Made by a program: the position numbers and the translations under genes
DNA from: a bacterium
Lineage (GTDB): Bacteria; JAGOBX01; DAONJL01
DNA: 64,000 nucleotides
Reading direction: 5' to 3'
NCBI GenBank assembly: GCA_035405645.1
Contig: DAONJL010000002.1
Coordinates: 68,701-132,700 of the forward strand
Shown here: positions 1,089 to 20,338 of the stretch, in pieces
How positions within the stretch are numbered: position 1 is the stretch's first letter
Layout: every line of letters begins with the position of its first letter
The notes under the pieces: model-generated
The model's input: only the letters and a program-made list of their open reading frames with translations
Databases searched by the model: none
What the model was told of the DNA's origin: nothing

Positions 1089-1694
1089 ATGAAAAAAATA
1101 ATTATAAGGGGTGAAATGATGAGATTAAACTATTTTATGAACTCTAATTTACGCTATTTATTTATTATTTTAATTGTTGCTATTTTAGCCTGTCAATCAA
1201 CTAAAAAATTAAAAGTTGGATTTGATGTTGATGATACTATTTTATTTTCTTCACCTAATTTTGATGTTGCTAATAATACTGATATAGAAAAATTTTCAAA
1301 AGAATATTGGGAAATGGTTAATAGTTCAGATGAAAAATATAGTAAAATAAAAAAGAAGACAGTTGAAATAATAAAAAAACATTTAGAGAATGGTGATGAA
1401 GTTTTTGTAATTACTGCAAGACCATCTTATGGAAAAGAAGGACTTGTTAATTTTTTAAATAAAGCATTAAATATTCCAAAAGAAAATATTTTCTTTGAAC
1501 CAGAAAGTAAAGTGCAGAGAATTAAAGAACTGAAATTAGATTATTTTTATGGTGATTCTGATAATGATATTCAGGACGCTATTGAAGCAGGCTCTGTTGG
1601 AATTCGAATTAAACGAAGTCCATTATCAGGTTATAAAAAGAAATATAACCCAGGAAAATTTAATGAAAAAATTATTGAAGATTCAGAAGAATAA
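1089..1694 (+). CDS. aphA: Class B acid phosphatase (AphA-like, HAD superfamily), predicted lipoprotein.
   Basis: [14 protein letters not shown] is the DxDxT HAD motif I and closely matches Aph[38 protein letters not shown] is HAD motif III and also AphA-like. N-terminal signal [19 protein letters not shown] ends in a cysteine lipobox. Internal Met codons at 1116 and 1137 have better RBS context (AAGGGGTG), so the true start may lie 27-48 nt downstream of 1089. Confidence 0.75.
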
Positions 1695-1699
1695 AAATT

Positions 1700-2509
1700 A
1701 TGTTAGCAAAAAGAATTATTCCATGTCTTGATGTAAAAGAAGGAAGAGTTGTTAAAGGCGTAAATTTTGTTAATTTAAAAGATGCAGGCGACCCTATTGA
1801 ATGTGCTATTGCTTATGATAAACAAAATGCAGATGAACTTGTTTTTTTAGATATTACTGCTTCTTATGAAAAAAGAAATATTATGATTGATATTGTAAAA
1901 AATGTTGCTGAATCAATTTATATTCCTTTTACAGTTGGTGGTGGTATACGCAATATTTATGATATTGATAATTTATTAAATGCTGGTTGTGATAAAGTTT
2001 CAATAAATACTGCTGCTGTTGAAAATCCAGAATTAATTAATGAAGCAGCCAAAAAATTTGGTTCACAATGTATTGTTGTTGCGATTGATGCAAAATTACA
2101 AAATAGAAAATATATTCAAAATGCTGATGATGATATAGAATTTATAAAACAAAATTATGAATGGGAAGTAATGATAAATGGTGGAAGAACAGAAACTGGA
2201 AAAAATGCAATAAATTGGGCAAAAGAATGTGAAGACCGTGGTGCAGGAGAAATTTTATTAACATCTATGGATGCTGATGGCACAACTGATGGTTATGATA
2301 TTTCTTTAAATAAAATTATTTCTGCAATTGTTAAAATACCAGTTATTGCTTCTGGTGGCGCAGGTAAATTAGAAGATTTTTTAGAAGTATTTAAAAAAAC
2401 AAATGTTTCAGCAGCACTTGCTGCTTCTGTTTTTCATTACAATATTCTTTCTATTCAACAAGTTAAAGAATATCTAATAAATAATAATATTCCTATTAGA
2501 CAAAAATGA
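1700..2509 (+). CDS. hisF: HisF-type imidazole glycerol phosphate synthase cyclase subunit homolog.
   Basis: [46 protein letters not shown] and PVIASGGAG follow the HisF (beta/alpha)8 signature end to end. No hisH, hisA, hisB, hisD or hisI is adjacent. The stop overlaps the next gene's ATG (ATGA at 2506-2509). Confidence 0.8.
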
Positions 2510-3954
2510 TTGTCCCGGACCCAATAACAAAAAAGAGTGATATTAATTTAGGTTATGTCTGTGATATAAATTGTCAATTCTGTTATTATAAATTTGGCAC
2601 TAAACCATTTATGCAACTTCAGGAAGTTAAAGAATTAATCGATAAAATGAAAAATACTTTTGATTTAAAAAGTATTGATTGGCAGGGTGGCGAACCAACA
2701 ATTTATAAACATTTGCTTGAAGCATTAGAATATGCAAAAAATAAAGGTTTTCATAATACTATTATTACTCATGGTTTAAATTTAACAAAAGATAAATTAA
2801 AAGATTTAAAATCTGCTGGTCTTGATGAAATTTTAATTTCTGTTCACGGCTTTGATTTTATTCATAATATTCAAACTGGTGTTAGTAATGGCTGGCAAAG
2901 AATAAATAATGCTCTCTGTAATATAAATGAAATTGGAATACCATTGCGAACGAATACAGTAATAAATAAATATAATTATGGCACATTACCTCATTTAGCA
3001 AAATTTTTTCTTAATTTTAATATTAATACACATAACTTCATAAACTTTAATTATTTTGCAACCTGGGCAAAAGATAAAGATGAATTTGCTGACCCACATT
3101 TTCAAATTCAATATAAATTTGTTAGACCTTTTTTAGAAGAAGCAATTGAAATATTAAAATCTGGGAATAGAAAAATAAATTTAAGATATATACCATTTTG
3201 TGTTGTTGATAAAAAATATGCTGAACATATTGTTGGATTTAAACAGGTTTTTTTTGACCCTGATGAATGGCTACCAAAACATATTTATAATGAAAATTAT
3301 TTTTCTATGGATGAAATAAATAAAATTACTTATACTGCACGATTAGGCGTCAAATTTGCCTGCGCTTTTAGTTCAAATGAATTTAAAGAATGTAAAAAGT
3401 GTTCTTATCAATTTATCTGTGATGGTTTAAGTAAAAGATATTATTTAAGATTTGGCGATGAAGATTTAAAAGCAATTAATGATGATAATTATATTAATGA
3501 TTTTATTTATTTCAGAAAAAAAGATTTTCCAAAATATTTCATTGCTGATTATAATAAAAATTCTGATGTTAAAAATATAAATTATCTTGATAATCTAAAT
3601 CAAATTATTTTATTTTCTCTTGTTGATAATATTTATTTATATCTTACAAATAATATTGAAAGATTCAATATGTATATAAATGAATTATCTGATTATTATG
3701 TTAATTCTCATTATTCTATTTTTGCAAAAGCATTTCAATATTTAATAAATGGAAAAATACAGGACGCAAGATATAATTTTAGATATTTTGATATTGTTGA
3801 TAATCATAAATCAAAATTAGGTGATTTAGGAATAATTTTAACTTTAATGAAAGAAGATAAATCAGATTTATTACAAAATAAAATTGCTAAATTTAAAAAT
3901 ATAAATTTTAATAATGAGTATAGAATTCTTGAAAAAATCAAAGAATGGCTTTAA
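2506..3954 (+). CDS. Radical SAM enzyme of unknown function with a C-terminal Cys-rich (SPASM/twitch-like) segment.
   Basis: CDINCQFC is CX3CX2C at residues 19-26. WQGGEPT is a GGE-type SAM-binding motif. A later [20 protein letters not shown] run (CX9CX2CX5C) is consistent with an auxiliary Fe-S cluster. The start is translationally coupled to the hisF-like gene. Confidence 0.7.
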
Positions 3955-4655
3955 TTATGGCTGATAATAAATTAATTTATAAAGAACCTGTTTCAATAAT
4001 AATTACAACAAAGAATAGATTTGATTCTTTTTCTAAATATCTTGAAAAAATAATTTCAACAACAGGTTCAAATCCTATTCTTATTGCATGTGATGATGAT
4101 AAAACTTCTTTTGAAAAATTAAAAGAAAAATTCGGTCATTTTGAATTTGTTAAAATTTATAATTCCCCTTATCAAATGGAAAATGTTTCATTAAGAAACT
4201 GGTTATATAAAAAAGTTGAAACTGAAAAATTTGTATATATGGATGATGATATGGAACCAGGAAATAATGAATGGTTAATAATTGCATTAGATTATTTTAA
4301 TAAATTATTTCCTGATAATATTGGTTTAGTTTCTTTTTGTGATGGCATACAAAATGGGAAATTAGCACCTGCTGGTTTAACAACAAAAACATTTATAAAT
4401 CGTGCTTGTAATGGTTATTTATATAATCCACAATATGTTCATTATTTTTGTGATACTGAAATAACTGTGCGAGCACAAATAATAAATCGTTATGCTTATT
4501 GTGCTGATGCTATTTTATTACATCGCCATGCAACTGTTACTGGAAATTATGATTTTATTTATAATCAATCAAAAGTATTCTGGAAACAGGATGAAATGGT
4601 TTTTAATGATTTTATGGAAAAAGTAATGGTATTAAAAAAGAAACTGGGAGGATAA
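3945..4655 (+). CDS. Hypothetical protein, possibly a GT-A-like glycosyltransferase (VSIIITTKNR, DDDM).
   Basis: A 236-aa ORF overlaps the radical SAM gene's stop by 10 nt. VSIIITTKNR resembles the GT2 N-terminal motif and YMDDDMEPG could be a DxD. This is only a weak match. Confidence 0.3.
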   Translation: MALIMADNKLIYKEPVSIIITTKNRFDSFSKYLEKIISTTGSNPILIACDDDKTSFEKLKEKFGHFEFVKIYNSPYQMENVSLRNWLYKKVETEKFVYMDDDMEPGNNEWLIIALDYFNKLFPDNIGLVSFCDGIQNGKLAPAGLTTKTFINRACNGYLYNPQYVHYFCDTEITVRAQIINRYAYCADAILLHRHATVTGNYDFIYNQSKVFWKQDEMVFNDFMEKVMVLKKKLGG

Positions 4656-4659
4656 TTTT

Positions 4660-5418
4660 ATGAAAAAAATTTTAACATCAAGTAAAATACTTGGTATTGA
4701 TATTGGAGGTTCTGGAATAAAAGGTGCAATTGTTAATATTGAAAATGGTGAATTAGAAACTGATGTATTTAGATTAGTTACACCTGAAATTTCTACACCA
4801 GAAAATATTGCAAATACAGTAAATGAAATCATTAAACATTTTAATTGGTCAAGTAAAATTGGTATTGGTTTTCCTGCTGTTGTTCGGAATGGTATTGTTT
4901 TTACTGCTGCAAATATTGATAAAAAATGGATTGGTGTTAATGCAGAAAATTTATTTTCAGAAAAAAGTGGATGTAAAGTAAAAGTAATAAATGATGCTGA
5001 TGCTGCTGGTATTGCAGAAATGCATTTTGGTGCTGGCAGAGAGCAAAATGGTGTTGTTATTCTTTTAACAATCGGCACTGGTATTGGTAGTGCTATTTTT
5101 ACAAATAACATATTACTACCAAATACAGAATTTGGTCATTTAAGAATGAAAGGAAAAATAGCTGAAAAATATGCTTCTGACTTTATTCGAAAAAAAGAAG
5201 ATTTGAGCTGGAAAAAATGGGCAAAAAGATTTAATAAATATTTAAAAAGACTTGAATTTTTATTCTGGCCTGATTTATTTATATTAGGTGGTGGAATTAG
5301 TAAAAAAGCAGATAAATATTTAAATTATTTTACAATAAATACAGAAATAAAAATAGCACAATTACAAAATAAAGCAGGTATTATTGGTGCTGCATTAGCA
5401 GCAAATAATTATTTATGA
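4660..5418 (+). CDS. ppgK: ROK-family sugar kinase, short polyphosphate-glucokinase-like type.
   Basis: LGIDIGGSGIKGAIV is the N-terminal ROK/actin-fold phosphate-1 motif. The ~250 aa size and the adjacency to CHAD and HD genes fit PPGK-like ROK proteins. GGAGGA RBS at 4646-4651. Confidence 0.55.
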   Translation: MKKILTSSKILGIDIGGSGIKGAIVNIENGELETDVFRLVTPEISTPENIANTVNEIIKHFNWSSKIGIGFPAVVRNGIVFTAANIDKKWIGVNAENLFSEKSGCKVKVINDADAAGIAEMHFGAGREQNGVVILLTIGTGIGSAIFTNNILLPNTEFGHLRMKGKIAEKYASDFIRKKEDLSWKKWAKRFNKYLKRLEFLFWPDLFILGGGISKKADKYLNYFTINTEIKIAQLQNKAGIIGAALAANNYL

Positions 5419-6383
5419 GAAATTTAATTAATCCAATTATTCAAAATTCAGAATTTTTCTTATTTGGTAAAAACAAAATAGTATTTTTTTTAAAAGAAAT
5501 TTTTTTTCTTTTATCTGGTGCAATAAAAAATAAGGATATTGAATACATTCATAAATTGCGTGTTACAAGCAGACGATTAAGAGAAACAATAAAAATTTTC
5601 CAAAATTGCATTGATAAATCACAAATAAAAAATATAAGAAAAAGTGTTAAAAGATTAGCAAAAACAGCAGGTTTTGCAAGAGATTTAGATGTTCAAATTT
5701 TATTCTTAAATGATTTTATTAAAAATTTAGATAAACAGAGTGAATATTTAAAAGGAGTAAAAAGAATTTTATTTAGAATTGAACAACACAGAAAAGAAGC
5801 ACAAAAGGAAATTATAAATGAAATTCGTGATTTTAAAAATAATAAATTTATAAAAAATTTTTTAAAAACAAATGAATCTTCTGATTATATAATTTCTGAT
5901 AATTTTCTTGAAAATTATTCAAATGATATTTTTGATGTAATTGAAGATGAGATTAAAGAAGTTTTGAAATATGAAAAATATGTAAATAAAGAAGAGAAAA
6001 TTAATGAACACCATAATATGCGAATTGCAATAAAACATTTAAGATATTCATTAGAAATATTCAATGAAGTCTATAATAATAAACTAAACATATATATAAA
6101 AAAATTAAAAAATATGCAGGATATTTTGGGTGGGATGCACGATTGTGATGTATGGCAAGATTTTATTTATAATTTTTTAAAAAATGAAAAAAAACTAATA
6201 AAAGAATATTTCGGTAATTTGAATAATTTTTATAAAATTCAAAAAGGTGCTGAATTTTTATTTAATAATCGTGTAAATAAAAGAAAAGAATTATATAATG
6301 AATTTAAAAAAGAATGGCAAAAGTTAAAGAAAGAAAATTTTTTTGAAAATATTAAAAACACAATTATTTCAAAAGATACTTAA
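5415..6383 (+). CDS. CHAD-domain protein (conserved histidine alpha-helical domain, associated with polyphosphate).
   Basis: HKLRVTSRRLRETIKIF matches the CHAD signature, and a second HNMRIAIKHLRYSLEIF repeat occurs later. The 4-nt overlap with the upstream kinase gene indicates coupling. Confidence 0.55.
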   Translation: MRNLINPIIQNSEFFLFGKNKIVFFLKEIFFLLSGAIKNKDIEYIHKLRVTSRRLRETIKIFQNCIDKSQIKNIRKSVKRLAKTAGFARDLDVQILFLNDFIKNLDKQSEYLKGVKRILFRIEQHRKEAQKEIINEIRDFKNNKFIKNFLKTNESSDYIISDNFLENYSNDIFDVIEDEIKEVLKYEKYVNKEEKINEHHNMRIAIKHLRYSLEIFNEVYNNKLNIYIKKLKNMQDILGGMHDCDVWQDFIYNFLKNEKKLIKEYFGNLNNFYKIQKGAEFLFNNRVNKRKELYNEFKKEWQKLKKENFFENIKNTIISKDT

Positions 6384-6412
6384 TAATAATTAATTTATGT
6401 AATATTTCAAAA

Positions 6413-6994
6413 ATGAATGAAATAGAAATTTTAAAATTTATACAAAAAATAATACCAGAAGATATAGAGCATTTAAAACAGGTAGCAAAATTATCAGTGA
6501 TTATATTTGAACAAACAAAAGATTTACATAATTTGAATGTAGATGAAAAAGAAAAATTATATTATGCTGCTTTATTACATGATGTTGGATATTCTATTAG
6601 TTTTTCCAAACATCATAAAAATTCATTAAAAATAATTCTAACTAATAATCAATTAACATTTACAAAAAAAGAGAGAATAATAATTGGTTTAATTGCACGC
6701 TATCATAGAAAAGCACTACCATCAAATAAACATAAATATTATTGTGATTTAGAAAAAAAAGAAAAAGATATAATAAATAAACTTGCAGCAATAATACGAA
6801 TAGCAGATGGACTTGATTTCACGCATAGAAATGTTATAGAAGATATAAAAATAAAAATAAAAAAAAATGAAGTTGAATTTTTTTGTAAAACAAAATATCC
6901 ACCTGAAATAGAATTTCAAAAAGCACAAAAAAAAGCAGATTTATTTGAAAATATATATAAGAAAAAAATAGTTTTATTTTCTGATATTAAATAA
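6413..6994 (+). CDS. HD-domain phosphohydrolase, similar to the C-terminal HD domain of Ppx/GppA.
   Basis: AALLHDVGYSISFSKHH contains the HD motif and a downstream RIADGLD. It is the last gene of the polyphosphate-associated trio. Confidence 0.45.
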   Translation: MNEIEILKFIQKIIPEDIEHLKQVAKLSVIIFEQTKDLHNLNVDEKEKLYYAALLHDVGYSISFSKHHKNSLKIILTNNQLTFTKKERIIIGLIARYHRKALPSNKHKYYCDLEKKEKDIINKLAAIIRIADGLDFTHRNVIEDIKIKIKKNEVEFFCKTKYPPEIEFQKAQKKADLFENIYKKKIVLFSDIK

Positions 6995-12149: not shown

Positions 12150-13508
12150 ATGTCTAAAGTTAAATTTATTTTAAGTGAAAGTGAAATGCCTTTAAAATGG
12201 TATAATGTTTTACCTGATTTACCAGAACCTTTAAAACCACCATTAAATCCTAAAACACTTCAACCTATCTCTCCAAATGATTTAGCAGTTATTTTTCCTG
12301 ATGAATTATTAAAACAAGAAATGTCAACTGATAGTGAAATTCCAATACCTGATGATGTCCTTGATATTTATTCTTTATATCGACCTACACCACTTGTTCG
12401 TGCTTTAAAATTAGAAAAAGCAATAAATACAAAATGTAAAATATTTTATAAGAATGAAAGCGTTTCAGCACCAGGTAGTCATAAATTAAATACCGCAATT
12501 GCACAAGCATACTACAACAAAAAACAGGGGATTGAAAAAATTGTAACTGAAACTGGTGCTGGTCAATGGGGTTCTGCTTTATCTCTTGCCTGTAAATTCT
12601 TAAATCTTAAATGTGAAGTTTATATGGTAAGAGTAAGTTATGAACAAAAACCATTTAGAAAATCACTTATGCATGTTTGGGGTGCTGATATTTTTCCAAG
12701 TCCATCAAATAGAACAAATGCAGGCCGTAAAATTTTACAAGAAAATCCACATTCTCCCGGATCACTTGGTATTGCGATTAGTGAAGCAATTGAAATTGCT
12801 GTCTCTGATAAAAAAACAAATTATTCATTAGGAAGTGTTTTAAATCATGTTTTATTACATCAAACTATAATTGGTTTAGAAACAAAAAAACAATTTGAAA
12901 AATTTGGTTTTTTACCTGATGTTGTAATTGGTTGCTGTGGTGGTGGCTCAAATTTTGGTGGTATCGCTCTTCCTTTTGTAAGAAATAAATTAGATGGTAA
13001 AGATATTCGTTTGATTGCTGTTGAACCTTTTTCCTGTCCTTCATTAACAAAAGGTGAATATAGATATGATTTTGGTGATACTGTTGGGCTTACTCCATTA
13101 TTATTAATGTTCACATTAGGACATAATTTTATTCCACCTGAAATTCATGCAGGTGGACTTCGTTATCATGGTGTTGCACCTATTATTAGCAATCTACATA
13201 AAAATAATATTGTTGAATCTATTGCTTATCATCAAAATGAAATCTTTAAATCTGCTGTATTATTTTCACAAACAGAAGGTATTTTACCTGCTCCAGAAAC
13301 TTCTCATGCTATCCATTGTGCTATTGAAACTGCAAAAGAATATGATAAAAAAGGTATTGTGAAAAATATTGTATTTTGTTTTAGTGGTCATGGTCATTTT
13401 GATTTAACCTCTTATGATAAATATTTAGAAAATAAATTAGAAGATTATGAATATCCTAAAGAAGAAATTTTAAAAGCATTAAAAGAATTACCTGAAATAA
13501 ATATTTAA
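12150..13508 (+). CDS. TrpB2-type tryptophan synthase beta-like PLP enzyme.
   Basis: The ~450 aa length with the N-terminal extension ([13 protein letters not shown]) is typical of TrpB2. The PLP lysine lies in the HKLNTAI context, and [10 protein letters not shown] is the glycine-rich PLP phosphate loop. No trpA or other trp genes are nearby. Confidence 0.7.
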
Positions 13509-13510
13509 TT

Positions 13511-14548
13511 ATGGAACAAAGAAAAATTGATATTATTAAACCTATAAAATGGGAAGATAATAAAATTACTATTATTGACCAAACAAAACTACCAAATACT
13601 TTAATTTTCGAATCATATACTGATTATAAAGAATTTATTGAAGCAATAAAACAATTAAAAGTGCGTGGTGCACCTGCATTAGGTATTGCTGGTGCTTATG
13701 CTTTTTTACTCGGTGTTAATAATATTAAAACTAATGATATAAATGAATTTATTTCAGAAGCAAATAAAATTGCAAATGAAATTATTAAAGCACGACCAAC
13801 AGCAATAAATTTAAAATGGGCTGTTAGTAGAATGCTAAAAATAATTACCAAAAATAAATCAATAGAAAAATTAAAAGAATTATTATCAAAAGAAGCTCTT
13901 GAAATTCATAATGAAGATTTAATGCTCTGTCAAAAAATTGGTGAAAATGGTAATGCTTTAATTAAAAATGGTATGAAAATTCTTACTCATTGTAATGCTG
14001 GTGCTTTAGCAACTGGTGGTTATGGAACTGCACTTGCTATTATTTATAAAGCTTTTGAAAGTGGAAAAAATATTACTGTTTATATTGATGAAACTCGTCC
14101 TTTATTACAGGGTGCTCGTTTAACTGCTTGGGAATTAACAAAAGCAGGAATTAATACTTATTTAATATCTGATAATATGGCTGGCTGGATTATGAAAAAA
14201 AGACAAATTGATTGTGTTATTGTTGGTGCTGATAGAATTGCTGCTAATGGTGATACTGCAAATAAAATTGGCACTTACTCTTTAAGTATCCTTGCTAAAT
14301 ATCATAGTATTCCATTTTATATTGCTGCTCCATATTCAACTTTTGATTTATCTTTAGCTAATGGCGAACAAATACCAATTGAAGAACGAAGTAAAGATGA
14401 AGTAATTAATTTTAATGGCAATAAAATCGCTCCTGCTGATGTTAATGTTGAAAATCCTGCTTTTGATATTACTCCTGCTGAAAATATTAATGCTATTATT
14501 ACAGAAAAAAAAGTTTTCTTTAATCCTTTTAAATTTAGTGATTTTTAA
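13511..14548 (+). CDS. mtnA: S-methyl-5-thioribose-1-phosphate isomerase (MtnA, eIF2B-related family).
   Basis: KVRGAPALGIAGAYAF, HCNAGALATGGYGTALA and GADRIAANGDTANKIGTY match MtnA/eIF2B-fold signatures. Length is 345 aa. Confidence 0.7.
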   Translation: MEQRKIDIIKPIKWEDNKITIIDQTKLPNTLIFESYTDYKEFIEAIKQLKVRGAPALGIAGAYAFLLGVNNIKTNDINEFISEANKIANEIIKARPTAINLKWAVSRMLKIITKNKSIEKLKELLSKEALEIHNEDLMLCQKIGENGNALIKNGMKILTHCNAGALATGGYGTALAIIYKAFESGKNITVYIDETRPLLQGARLTAWELTKAGINTYLISDNMAGWIMKKRQIDCVIVGADRIAANGDTANKIGTYSLSILAKYHSIPFYIAAPYSTFDLSLANGEQIPIEERSKDEVINFNGNKIAPADVNVENPAFDITPAENINAIITEKKVFFNPFKFSDF

Positions 14549-17836: not shown

Positions 17837-18496
17837 ATGAAAACAATTAAAAAAAATAGTTCTAATTTTAAAAAAAAATTTCAATCTTATTTTTTAACTG
17901 GTTTTATTTCCATTTTTCCTTTTCTTGCTACTATTTATATAATTAAAATTATTTTTCTTTTTATTAAAAATAATTTTCCAATTGAAGTATTATCAAAAAT
18001 TCATCCAATTATTAATTATCCAATTATTTTCCCTATTTTCACTCTAATATTAGCAACTGTTTTTTCTATTTTATTTTTAACTTTATTTGGTTTCTTTATT
18101 TCAAATTTTATTGGAAAAAAAATTTTTTTGTTTTTAGAAAAATTTTTATTTAAAGTTCCTATAATAAATAAAATCTATAACTGGCTTAAACAACTTATTC
18201 TTTCATTTTCTTTAACTAATAAAGATTTATTAAAAAAAGTTGTGCTTGTGGAATTCCCTAAAAAAGGAACATTTACGATTGGGTTTATTACTTCTATTGT
18301 TGATAAAAAAATTTTTAAGAATCTTCAAAATGATAATCTGAATTATTATTTTATCTATGTACCTACTACGCCTAATCCAACTTCAGGTTATTTATTAATT
18401 TTTAATGAAAATGAAATTACTGAATTAAATATATCAACAGAAGAAGCAATTAAATTAGTTATTTCATTAGGTTTTTATCATTTTAAAAATGAATGA
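17837..18496 (+). CDS. DUF502-family membrane protein.
   Basis: FLTGFISIFPFLATIYII and a following hydrophobic helix resemble the DUF502/COG2928 family. This is a weak match. Confidence 0.35.
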   Translation: MKTIKKNSSNFKKKFQSYFLTGFISIFPFLATIYIIKIIFLFIKNNFPIEVLSKIHPIINYPIIFPIFTLILATVFSILFLTLFGFFISNFIGKKIFLFLEKFLFKVPIINKIYNWLKQLILSFSLTNKDLLKKVVLVEFPKKGTFTIGFITSIVDKKIFKNLQNDNLNYYFIYVPTTPNPTSGYLLIFNENEITELNISTEEAIKLVISLGFYHFKNE

Positions 18497-19859
18497 TATT
18501 TTAAATAAAAATCTTATTCTTTTTAAGAAATATCATTGTGATATTTCTCTTCCTCTTAATTTTACTTCTTTAAATTTGGAAACTTTTAATAATTTACCTT
18601 TTAAAATTTTTTTTAATAATCAACAAATAATATTAAATAGTAAATATAATCCAATAAAAGAAATTGAACGCCAATTTGAAAAAGATTATATTTTTAAAAA
18701 TAAACCAATTATTTTTTTCGGTTTTGGTTTTGGCTTTATATTAAAATTTATTAATTCTTCTCTTAATCTTCTTTCAAATAAAATAATTATTATTGAACCT
18801 TTTCCTGAAATATTTTTTACTGCTTTAAATATTACTGATTTTTCTAATGAAGAACAAATTATAAAAAATATAACTTTTATTATTTCAGATTCAGAAGAAA
18901 AAATTTTAAAAAAATTATTTTCTATTATTTCTTTAAATGAATTAAATACAGTTAATTTTATTATTCATAAACCAACTTTCTCTTTATTATCAAATAAATT
19001 TAATAAAATCAAATCAATAATTGAACAAATAATTGAAAATAAAAATTTTGAAAATAAATTTGGTTCTTTAATGGAAAATAATTATCTATCAAATAAAAAA
19101 TTTATTTCTTCTTCTTTTCCTATTTCAGATTTTATAAAACAAAATAAAAATAAATTTGAATTTGGATTTTTAATTTCTGCTGGACCTTCTCTTGATTTTT
19201 GTTATGCTGCAATAAAAAAATTAAAATCTAAAAATTCAATTATTGCTTCTGTTGATGCTGCTTTAATTCCTTTACTTGAAAATAGTATTATTCCAGATTT
19301 TGTTTTATCAATCGACCCACAACATTATATATTTGATTTTTATAATTATCAAAAAGAATATAATTTTAATTTGATTTTCTCTTTATTATCTTCCCCTGAT
19401 ATTCACTCTTTTTCTTTTCAAAAAAAATATTATTTTGTTCCTTCACAACATTTTGTTATTTCTAAATTTAATGATTATTATGAATCTGATAATTTTTTAG
19501 ATGGTGGTGGTGCTGTTTCTACTTACCTTTTAGAACTTTTAATTAAATTGAATTGCAAATCTATTTATTTTTTTGGACAAGATTTTTCTTTCCCTTTTTT
19601 TTATTTATATTCTAAATATTCTGCTTTTTATCTTAATGCTATTATTTCTTTAAATAAATTTAATTCAATTGAAACTATTAATTTTACTTCTTTTCTTAAT
19701 TTTGAATATTTATCTGTTAATAATCTATATACTTCAAAAACATTATTGACTTATAAAAAAGAATTTGAAAATTTGATAAGAAAAAATAATCACATATCTT
19801 TTTTTAATGTAAATTCTTATGGGTTAAATATAAATAGTTCACAAAATATTTTTATTTGA
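18489..19859 (+). CDS. Hypothetical protein, possibly Maf/DUF115-like (motility-associated factor putative glycosyltransferase family).
   Basis: The central FLISAGPSLDF...IIASVDAAL...DGGGAVSTYLLELL region resembles the DUF115 GPSL and nucleotide-binding-like motifs. This is a family guess from pattern only. Confidence 0.3.
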   Translation: MNDILNKNLILFKKYHCDISLPLNFTSLNLETFNNLPFKIFFNNQQIILNSKYNPIKEIERQFEKDYIFKNKPIIFFGFGFGFILKFINSSLNLLSNKIIIIEPFPEIFFTALNITDFSNEEQIIKNITFIISDSEEKILKKLFSIISLNELNTVNFIIHKPTFSLLSNKFNKIKSIIEQIIENKNFENKFGSLMENNYLSNKKFISSSFPISDFIKQNKNKFEFGFLISAGPSLDFCYAAIKKLKSKNSIIASVDAALIPLLENSIIPDFVLSIDPQHYIFDFYNYQKEYNFNLIFSLLSSPDIHSFSFQKKYYFVPSQHFVISKFNDYYESDNFLDGGGAVSTYLLELLIKLNCKSIYFFGQDFSFPFFYLYSKYSAFYLNAIISLNKFNSIETINFTSFLNFEYLSVNNLYTSKTLLTYKKEFENLIRKNNHISFFNVNSYGLNINSSQNIFI

Positions 19860-19891
19860 TTTATTTTTTATAATATTTTATTTTTTATTTT

Positions 19892-20338
19892 ATGAAACTG
19901 AATTTTTTGAAAAATACTAATTCTTTCTCTTTAATTGAATTAGTTATTTCTATTGGAATACTTATACCTGCCCTTATTGTTTCCTATCAAATATCATTTA
20001 ATTATTTTGATACTTTTGAACGATTTGAAGATTATAAAAATATAAATTATTTAGTTCACCATTATCTTGAAAAATTTAATTATGACGAATTAGCATTAAA
20101 TAAAGAAGTAACTGATAATTATAGAATAAATGATAAAAATTATTTTATCACTTTTTTAGTTAAAGATTTTGAATTAGTTCAATTATTCAAAATAAATTTT
20201 TTAGATTCATCTTATATTGAACAATATAAAAAATTTATATCTGATTTAAATGATTTAAAAATTATTTCTGTTACAATAAAAAATGATAAAAAACAACAAT
20301 TCAATTTTTCTAAAATCATTTTATTAAAAAATACTTGA
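19892..20338 (+). CDS. Prepilin-type N-terminal domain protein (type IV pilin or pseudopilin-like).
   Basis: A positively charged leader MKLNFLKNTNS is followed by FSLIELVISIGILIPALIV. An Ile-Glu-Leu with Glu at +5 and a hydrophobic helix is the class III signal pattern. Position -1 is Ser rather than Gly. Confidence 0.45.
   Translation: MKLNFLKNTNSFSLIELVISIGILIPALIVSYQISFNYFDTFERFEDYKNINYLVHHYLEKFNYDELALNKEVTDNYRINDKNYFITFLVKDFELVQLFKINFLDSSYIEQYKKFISDLNDLKIISVTIKNDKKQQFNFSKIILLKNT

Follow-up and report, generated by a model that had tools for sequence, protein, structure and literature searches.

Two unrelated functions probably adjoin within the tight co-directional gene array described here: an ordinary hisF gene, and a radical SAM-GT2 cassette for the tailoring of glycans. 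The array lies in the window, the whole stretch of 64,000 nucleotides that was analysed. We base this reading on family memberships, conserved residues, the pattern of gene fusion and adjacency, and the non-conservation of the hisF link, all of which were observed directly.

The array comprises seven genes of the plus strand (1089-6994). It opens with a gene for an AphA-like class B (HAD-IIIB) acid phosphatase (1089..1694; PF03767; the true start is possibly the ATG at 1116), which is followed by hisF (1700..2509; 269 aa; TIGR00735), encoding the cyclase subunit of IGP synthase, a gene for a radical SAM enzyme of an unnamed family (2506..3954; 482 aa; PF04055), and a third gene encoding a short, divergent glycosyltransferase of the GT2/GT-A type (3945..4655; 236 aa; profile and fold matches). 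These four genes, with the motifs and overlaps ascribed to them by the first-pass annotation, were all confirmed. The remaining members are a polyphosphate glucokinase gene (4660-5418; NF045942, 342.7 bits against a cutoff of 250) and genes for a CHAD protein (5415-6383; PF05235) and an HD/Ppx-GppA domain III protein (6413-6994; PF21447 and PF01966). They share a polyphosphate theme and lie outside the radical SAM-GT module; they are not found beside the radical SAM-GT pair in L013, a related contig discussed below.

The hisF stop codon overlaps the ATG of the radical SAM gene by 4 nt (ATGA), and between the latter and the third gene the overlap is 10 nt. Such arrangements are widespread in the window, in which coding density is about 94% (the genome has 22% GC): 13 of the 49 same-strand gene pairs overlap, and 28 of the 49 (57%) either overlap or are separated by no more than 10 nt. 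For this reason, “translational coupling” says little about function here. Promoter-like sites were rarer than in shuffled sequences and terminator-like hairpins fell within coding sequence, and scanning the window for Rfam families and tRNAs gave no matches.

The radical SAM protein matches PF04055 with 79.6 bits (cutoff 29.5) and consists of a radical SAM core (residues 1-340) and a lineage-specific helical, TPR-like C-terminal extension (residues 345-482; nt 3538-3951). The SAM-binding [4Fe-4S] cluster is ligated by the cysteines of the CX3CX2C motif (C19, C23 and C26; residues 19-26; 2560..2583), which are invariant in an alignment of 30 sequences (A1). Four further cysteines (C232, C296, C299 and C305; 3184..3429) are invariant both in A1 and in a second alignment (A3), which brings the number of invariant cysteines in the family to seven. 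C232 lies in the motif RYxPFC (nt 3199-3201), and the other three in CxxCx5C[D/S]G (nt 3391-3420). The auxiliary CX9CX2CX5C cluster recognised earlier is present in the protein of the window (C286-x9-C296-x2-C299-x5-C305), but its first cysteine, C286, is not conserved in the family alignment, and its place in the family set is taken by C232. We infer that the four residues may ligate one auxiliary [4Fe-4S] cluster in a twitch-like manner. No Pfam match to the SPASM domain (PF13186) was obtained, and the seven-cysteine, two-cluster SPASM signature is absent: four auxiliary cysteines are conserved, and there is no cysteine three residues past C305. In comparison with the SPASM/twitch enzymes SkfB, anSME, SuiB and BtrN, the auxiliary cysteines suffice for one cluster only, and the family occurs in glycan clusters rather than in peptide or sulfatase systems.

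The nearest solved folds are those of BlsE, a cytosylglucuronate decarboxylase (PDB 7VOB), and viperin (PDB 5VSL), with 16-17% identity. Both belong to the radical SAM enzymes and have nucleoside- or nucleotide-linked substrates, but the family described here has its own invariant four-cysteine C-terminal motif and a glycosyltransferase partner. Assignment to a subfamily by HMM searches, as proposed in the first-pass annotation, did not succeed, since the scores for BlsE (TIGR04466, 45 against a cutoff of 400), prokaryotic viperin (NF038283, 71.9 against 180), MoaA (TIGR02666, 52.9 against 284) and HxsC (TIGR03977, 46.2 against 267.9; NF038332, 61.2 against 500) all remained below threshold. 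The same was true of every curated cutoff for the eight family members tested. Judged by these profile searches, the family is covered by no curated family. When metagenomes were scanned with the radical SAM protein as the only query, no close relatives were detected, and a scan with the alignment of the window and L013 proteins recovered only radical SAM proteins of 24-30% identity.

The product of the third gene carries the motifs VSIIITTKNR (residues 16-25) and MDDDM (residues 99-103), in which the first-pass annotation had seen hints of a GT-A fold. The view of this protein as a divergent GT2 (GT-A) glycosyltransferase is supported by profile comparison, by its relatives and by a predicted structure, although its PF00535 score (21.9 bits) is just under the gathering threshold of 23.3; its ortholog P0117 (69% identity) scores 24.9, above that threshold. 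Comparison with the partner GT domains by direct BLAST gave no significant match (E 0.07-0.7). A profile comparison by hhalign with the GT domains fused or adjacent to members of the radical SAM family gave a probability of 96.5% (E 1e-9), and D100-D101-D102 is in register with the DDD found in the GT domains of the fusions. Exhaustive HMMER searching recovered 831 relatives at E<=1e-3 (a word-index search gave one), and the ten multi-domain relatives scanned all contain a clear PF00535 domain (27.6-152.9). The top Foldseek matches are all GT-A/GT2 proteins (E down to 3e-7), with an AlphaFold model that is poor (pLDDT 57), and the NCBI name of the protein is “glycosyltransferase family A protein”. 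With the GT2 enzymes TarP, PcManGT and GtrB it shares the Rossmann-like N-terminal start, the DXD motif (residues 100-102, within nt 4233-4256) and a conserved acidic residue, Asp170 (nt 4452-4454). It differs from them in being short (236 aa) and in belonging to a subfamily repeatedly found as the partner of a radical SAM enzyme.

This partnership is seen most directly in gene fusions. Among 115 homologs of the radical SAM protein, 10 are fused to GT domains: a GT2 domain precedes the radical SAM domain in P0003, P0004, P0005, P0010 and P0030 and follows it in P0041, and GT4 fusions were found in P0089, P0091, P0100 and P0113. GT4 and aminotransferase domains are among the fusion partners. 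Where the protein is unfused, its gene overlaps or directly adjoins a GT2 gene, or belongs to a glycan cluster with GT2, GT4 or GT9 glycosyltransferases, Wzm/Wzt, a flippase, NDP-sugar epimerases or methyltransferases (loci L005, L008, L010, L012, L013, L096, L097 and L098). The evidence thus supports one module made up of the third gene and the gene for the radical SAM enzyme, and the contexts in which such pairs occur are compatible with a function in the synthesis or transfer of a modified sugar. The first-pass annotation had proposed a single module of three genes, with a modified sugar, nucleotide or cofactor as its possible product; the part of this proposal concerning the second and third genes and a sugar product has stood, and the inclusion of HisF has not, as its link to the other two is not conserved.

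Fusion of two domains in both orders strongly predicts that the partners form a functional complex, and the two orders observed for GT2 therefore suggest that the radical SAM enzyme and the glycosyltransferase act as a physical complex. A bolder extension of this idea, to which we give limited credence, is that these proteins represent an undescribed “radical-SAM glycosyltransferase” system of Bacteria and Archaea, often contained in a single chain, in which radical C-H chemistry is physically coupled to glycosyl transfer. If so, an unusual sugar (keto, epimerised, deoxy or C-branched) would be made in situ on the donor or the nascent acceptor, in a reaction without a characterised counterpart.

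The mode of action that we propose for the cassette concerns cluster binding, substrate class and reaction type, which we infer. The radical SAM enzyme and the overlapping GT2 would form a self-contained unit for glycan tailoring. The [4Fe-4S] cluster of the CX3CX2C motif would cleave SAM reductively to yield a 5'-deoxyadenosyl radical, which would remove a hydrogen atom from one of the carbons of a nucleotide- or carrier-linked sugar. The second cluster, fully ligated by C232, C296, C299 and C305, may accept or return an electron, and the sugar would emerge oxidised, epimerised, deoxygenated or decarboxylated. The GT-A partner, with its DXD motif, would then move the modified sugar, or a neighbouring one, onto a lipid-linked or protein acceptor.

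Substrates other than sugars were also considered. The best full-length likeness of the radical SAM protein among sequence models is to HxsC-type putative peptide maturases, and the pair might modify a peptide or protein, either as a RiPP-type maturase with an S/O-glycosyltransferase or in flagellin or pilin glycosylation. We regard this as unlikely: the likeness is far under the cutoffs (family scores of 65-134 against 500), the overlapping array has no space for the ORF of a precursor peptide, and the genomic contexts are mostly classical polysaccharide clusters (Wzm/Wzt, flippase, NDP-sugar enzymes and multiple GTs). The use of nucleosides or nucleotides by the top two structural neighbours, and the fact that the two Maf-like proteins (of the window and of L013) are not orthologous, also speak against it. 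Less probable again is that the radical SAM enzyme, like Tes, has a lipid substrate, either a polyprenyl carrier or a membrane lipid, with the GT2 serving as a polyprenyl-phosphate glycosyltransferase on the same lipid. The likeness to Tes is no higher than that to a dozen other radical SAM enzymes, no membrane segment was predicted in either protein when their sequences were read by eye, and the GT4 and aminotransferase fusion partners are typical of sugar pathways.

The HisF protein contains the motifs IIPCLDV (residues 6-12), TVGGGIR (78-84) and IASGGAG (216-222), and residues 1-267 match positions 1-254 of the equivalog model TIGR00735 with 372.2 bits, 78 above the cutoff of 294.55. Its identity to the HisF proteins of Brocadia, Omnitrophota and Planctomycetota is 63-70% (the best match in the genome contig collection reaches 67%), and some of its close matches are encoded in hisD-B-H-A-F operons (L016, L021 and L023). 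Matches to HisF structures in the PDB have E values of 1e-78 to 1e-94. With the HisF of T. maritima (PDB 1THF/1GPW; about 55% identity) it has in common the full-length (beta/alpha)8 barrel and the functional residues. In the alignment with the T. maritima sequence, whose length and alignment are consistent with the PDB 1thf/1gpw matches, D11, D130, R5, E46, K99, E167(184), D98, Q123 and both phosphate sites are retained. In the T. maritima IGP synthase D11 and D130 are catalytic, R5, E46, K99 and E167 form the ammonia gate, D98 and Q123 contact HisH, and the two phosphate sites bind phosphate. The protein differs from this HisF by an insertion of about 17-21 residues in the loop after beta-5 (residues 133-153; nt 2096-2158). 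Judged by the curated model and residue conservation, it is of the housekeeping type. A neighbourhood-network study likewise treats bacterial HisF as monofunctional (PMC5445326).

The gene is a lone one, as first noticed: no other his gene was recognisable among the window ORFs (part of which were scanned against Pfam), and hisF is not beside hisH or hisA. This is not unusual, as hisF has no his neighbour within 6 kb in 39 of the 82 comparable loci. We therefore favour the view that the gene would encode an ordinary cyclase subunit, located apart from the rest of the his genes, an arrangement shared by many genomes, and that it would have been inherited together with the upstream gene for the secreted phosphatase.

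The conserved hisF-radical SAM neighbourhood for which the first-pass annotation suggested a search was not found. No homolog of the radical SAM protein or of the glycosyltransferase occurs within 10 kb of hisF in any of the 82 hisF loci, hisF is present at none of the nine loci of the radical SAM family, and the adjacency is missing in the nearest available relative. Two separate contigs of run ERR14964779 are informative in this respect. L014 carries the order AphA (67%)-HisF (70%)-thioesterase-MscS-EF-P, and L013 the order radical SAM (41%)-GT (69%)-Maf-like (the Maf-like proteins of the window and of L013 are not orthologs). Their similar GC content (29.8% against 28.7%) and tetranucleotide composition (r = 0.987) suggest one organism, an attribution based on composition and the shared sample and not on an assembly. 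L013 has only 118 nt ahead of the radical SAM gene, and in this short stretch no hisF-like frame abuts the gene. The radical SAM protein is far more diverged between the window and these contigs (41%) than are GT, HisF and AphA (66-73%).

These data bear on the three-gene pathway, in which a HisF-type barrel would act outside histidine biosynthesis together with the radical SAM enzyme and the third protein to produce a modified sugar, nucleotide or cofactor. The genes are indeed contiguous, co-directional and overlapping, the 64-kb window yielded no further his gene, and genes related to glycans (Wzy_C-like, GT2) follow hisF in three other relatives (L015, L018 and L019), a weak hint at some tendency of hisF to neighbour glycan genes. 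Against this stand the passing of the housekeeping equivalog and failure in the paralog models, the identity to operon-encoded HisF, the retention of all PRFAR and ammonia-gate residues, the missing adjacency and the generic nature of overlaps in this genome, and we judge such a pathway very improbable. In the open literature searched we found no description of HisF-radical SAM pairs or of radical SAM-GT2 fusions. Recruitment of a HisF barrel by a radical SAM enzyme would be a new type of pathway, and the evidence speaks against it; that HisF feeds the radical SAM-GT cassette is a more remote reading, to be given very little weight at best. Least credible of all is that the protein is a paralog of the WbuZ/AglZ type, the synthase subunit of a glycan acetamidino-forming amidotransferase serving the adjacent glycan genes: both are HisF paralogs of glycan clusters (NCBIfam descriptions) sharing its fold and superfamily and the nearby glycosyltransferase genes, and its WbuZ score (TIGR03572, 277.4 bits) is close to the cutoff of 299.7, but it lies under both this and the AglZ/HisF2 cutoff (NF038364, 221.6 bits against 310), the array has no HisH-like (WbuY/AglX) or WbuX-like gene and no GATase domain, and the protein is much nearer to bona fide HisF, the name under which its nearest relatives are annotated.

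The AphA-like protein scores 54.5 bits with PF03767 (cutoff 27) and 97.8 bits with the AphA model TIGR01672, below the cutoff of 195.8. It has a hydrophobic N-terminus extending to ...ILAC, with a lipobox-like Cys35, and the motif DVDDT is present beyond this residue. It is predicted from these features to be a lipoprotein with a signal peptide and an extracytoplasmic location, so that no cytoplasmic pathway shared with its neighbours would be possible. The gene had been described as coupled to those downstream. It is a neighbour of hisF, the adjacency being kept in L014 (about 67-73% identity), and lies outside the radical SAM-GT module. The protein was also considered as the missing histidinol-phosphatase and ruled out, as it scores 18 bits against a cutoff of 280 and carries a signal peptide.

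To conclude, the case of hisF and its neighbour illustrates that gene overlap in a genome with 22% GC and 94% coding density is no evidence of functional coupling. The analysis also defines an unnamed radical SAM subfamily with seven conserved cysteines, whose members are repeatedly fused to GT2 domains or overlap GT2 genes in the surface-glycan clusters of uncultured bacteria and archaea. This family is a reasonable target in the search for new anaerobic sugar-tailoring chemistry.

The observation made in the first-pass annotation was confirmed, and its reading of hisF, a radical SAM gene and a third gene as one module was partly supported: the radical SAM enzyme and a GT2 glycosyltransferase appear to form a module, with HisF and the AphA-like phosphatase outside it. 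The four open reading frames in question, all on the forward strand, i.e. the AphA-like gene (1089-1694), hisF (1700-2509), the radical SAM gene (2506-3954) and the third gene (3945-4655), were found where the annotation had placed them, together with every motif quoted for them. The radical SAM start codon overlaps the hisF stop codon (ATGA), and the radical SAM and third genes overlap by 10 nt. The first of these junctions had been described as translationally coupled. The overlap is real but uninformative as to coupling, because 13 of the 49 same-strand gene pairs in the window overlap, 28 of the 49 are spaced by 10 nt or less, and coding density is about 94%; it is the ordinary gene packing of this genome. 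The window represents a chromosomal origin region of 22% GC (dnaA, dnaN, recF, gyrB, gyrA and parAB are present), and its source MAG was found in several metagenome samples of varied origin (JGI, ENA, Logan).

The four genes belong to a seven-gene array preceded by a 566-nt AT-rich non-coding gap (523-1088) in this otherwise ~94%-coding window. Within the gap lies a TTGACT...TATAAT pair with a 15-nt spacer (about 1055-1081); neither an Rfam family nor a tRNA was matched. Three genes directly downstream of the third gene (4660-6994) encode a polyphosphate glucokinase (342.7 bits on NF045942, against a cutoff of 250), a protein with a CHAD domain and a stand-alone HD/Ppx-GppA domain III protein. 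Counting the secreted AphA-like acid phosphatase at its upstream end, the array has a phosphate/polyphosphate theme, interrupted by hisF and the radical SAM and third genes. Elsewhere in the window (12150-14548), the gene for a TrpB-like PALP enzyme (452 aa) immediately precedes one for a protein of the methylthioribose-1-phosphate-isomerase/eIF-2B family (PF01008, 313 bits).

The third gene, in which only GT-A-like hints had been noticed, can now be assigned by sequence comparison as a probable GT2. The protein scores 21.9 against Pfam GT2, narrowly short of the gathering score of 23.3, and its ortholog P0117 exceeds this threshold (24.9). A profile of these two sequences matched the GT domains that partner related radical SAM proteins (96.5% probability, E 1e-9); both the DXD motif and an acidic residue, D170, were aligned. 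An exhaustive HMMER search recovered 831 relatives, and all 10 of the multi-domain relatives scanned contained a clear PF00535 domain. A low-confidence structure model (pLDDT 57) matched GT-A enzymes only, and the NCBI name of the protein is "glycosyltransferase family A protein".

Of the proposed three-gene module, the part joining the radical SAM and GT2 genes stands, as these probably form the actual module. Among homologs of the radical SAM protein, which share 30-37% identity with it across its first ~340 residues, fusions to GT2 domains in a single chain occur both in the GT2-radical SAM order (P0003, P0004, P0005, P0010, P0030) and in the reverse order (P0041), which matches that of the two genes in the window; other homologs are fused to GT4 domains or to an aminotransferase. 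Unfused members have overlapping or abutting GT2 genes, or occur in glycan-type clusters, in bacteria and one archaeon (loci L005, L008, L010, L012, L096, L097 and L098). These clusters contain GT2/GT4/GT9 genes, Wzm/Wzt, a flippase, NDP-sugar epimerases/dehydratases, methyltransferases and further radical SAM genes. At the edge of the family is P0045, a more distant member found in a cluster of several radical SAM genes.

The fusion P0010 (GT2_5-radical SAM, 36% identical; L005 8001-9746, JGI 3300025589, contig Ga0209409_1000086) belongs to a methyltransferase/GT4/GT2 cluster; its contig, of 98 kb, and that of the window were recovered from one sample. The composition of L005 resembles that of the window (GC 24.6%, tetranucleotide r = 0.985), and the fusion may represent another copy of the module, carried by this genome or by a sister genome.

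Peptide or protein and lipid targets were weighed as rivals to a sugar substrate, and it is a glycan role that genomic context and fusion support. SAM would be reductively cleaved at the CX3CX2C cluster, and the resulting radical would remove a hydrogen from a carbon atom of a sugar linked to a nucleotide or carrier. With an auxiliary cluster handling the electron, the product would be an oxidised, epimerised, deoxygenated or decarboxylated sugar. The DXD GT-A partner would then catalyse glycosyl transfer, both proteins acting as a complex.

A pathway of three genes including HisF is very unlikely, since the adjacency of hisF to the radical SAM gene is not conserved. The third gene has a single close relative, P0117 (69% identical), encoded on contig L013 of sequencing run ERR14964779, directly after a full-length radical SAM ortholog (41% identical) and before a Maf-N-domain gene. 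The closest HisF, P0119 (70%), is on L014, a separate contig of this run, where an AphA-like gene (67-73% identical) and hisF are followed by thioesterase, MscS, EF-P and other genes, among which neither a radical SAM enzyme nor a GT is encoded. L013 and L014 plausibly come from one organism, because their GC contents match (28.7% and 29.8%) and their tetranucleotide correlation (0.987) was the highest among the pairs tested. The two genes on L013 are the only close relatives of the radical SAM-GT pair in the searched data, and that contig begins just upstream of them, the 118 nt before the radical SAM start containing no hisF-like frame abutting the gene. No homolog of the radical SAM or GT protein of the window was encoded within 10 kb of hisF in any of 82 hisF loci, and hisF was absent from all nine close radical-SAM-family loci. 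These gene orders and counts suggest that the AphA-hisF and radical SAM-GT adjacencies are inherited, and that the hisF/radical SAM junction is peculiar to this genome.

Divergence between the two organisms is very uneven: the radical SAM proteins share 41% identity and the GTs 66-69% (window 2506-4655, L013 119-2350), next to 70% for HisF and 67-73% for AphA; this strong asymmetry may reflect a fast-evolving radical SAM enzyme or a pair with a different history. The Maf-N-domain protein of L013 (2370-3755) directly follows the pair. At 18489-20338 the window has a gene for an MptE-like protein of the Maf (motility accessory factor) type and, after it, one for a small protein whose N-terminus (FSLIELVISIG) resembles that of type IV pilins; identity between the two Maf-like proteins is only 26% over 145 aa, which leaves orthology unsupported.

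HisF was indeed the only his gene product recognised across the 64 kb, but its isolation is uninformative here: 39 of the 82 loci with similar genes, including those of all the closest relatives, lack hisH, hisA, hisI, hisB and hisD within 6 kb (among them Campylobacter concisus and Propionicimonas isolates, Akkermansia MAGs and a Desulfurobacterium MAG). In three of the closest loci (L015 10001-12110, L018 3788-5786, L019 10001-12777), a gene for a Wzy_C/O-antigen-ligase-like membrane protein comes after hisF on the same strand, and L019 has a GT2 gene there as well; the gap in L019 is about 1 nt. This arrangement may represent synteny within the clade or a weak tendency of hisF to lie near glycan genes.

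HisF itself is already known, and this copy is probably the housekeeping enzyme. Its score against TIGR00735, the HisF equivalog, is 372.2 bits (cutoff 294.55), and it aligns end to end with solved HisF structures (E 1e-78 to 1e-94). Its relatives at 63-70% identity are the ordinary HisF of Brocadia, Omnitrophota, Planctomycetota and others, some within classical hisD-hisB-hisH-hisA-hisF operons (e.g. L016, gene labels confirmed with Pfam). Alignment to T. maritima HisF showed conservation of D11 and D130, catalytic in that enzyme, of its ammonia-gate residues R5/E46/K99/E167 and HisH-contact residues D98/Q123, and of both phosphate sites. The sole peculiarity is a 17-21-residue loop insertion (residues 133-153, nt 2096-2158), which follows the AIDAK strand relative to the T. 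maritima and reconstructed ancestral proteins; the closest relatives (260 aa) appear to have a shorter version. The weakest rival, a WbuZ-like HisF, is very unlikely, the protein falling below the cutoffs of the models for the glycan-pathway paralogs WbuZ (277.4 vs 299.7) and AglZ/HisF2 (221.6 vs 310). A neighbourhood-network study stated that bacterial HisF has no further described function (PMC5445326).

The AphA-like phosphatase, which had been regarded as coupled upstream, is indeed adjacent to hisF, and this order is kept (window 1089-2509, L014 226-1740; 67-73% and 70% identity), but it is probably not a member of the module. In both organisms its hydrophobic N-terminus ends in a lipobox-like Cys, so the protein is predicted to be extracytoplasmic and no pathway partner. 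Despite their conserved gene order, it and HisF are expected in different cell compartments.

Neither HisF-radical SAM pairs nor radical SAM-GT2 fusion proteins were described in the open-access literature searched. We class the radical SAM-GT cassette with the sugar-tailoring radical SAM enzymes, a known class of which it is an uncharacterised member; its recurrent fusion to a glycosyltransferase is possibly a new architectural variant.
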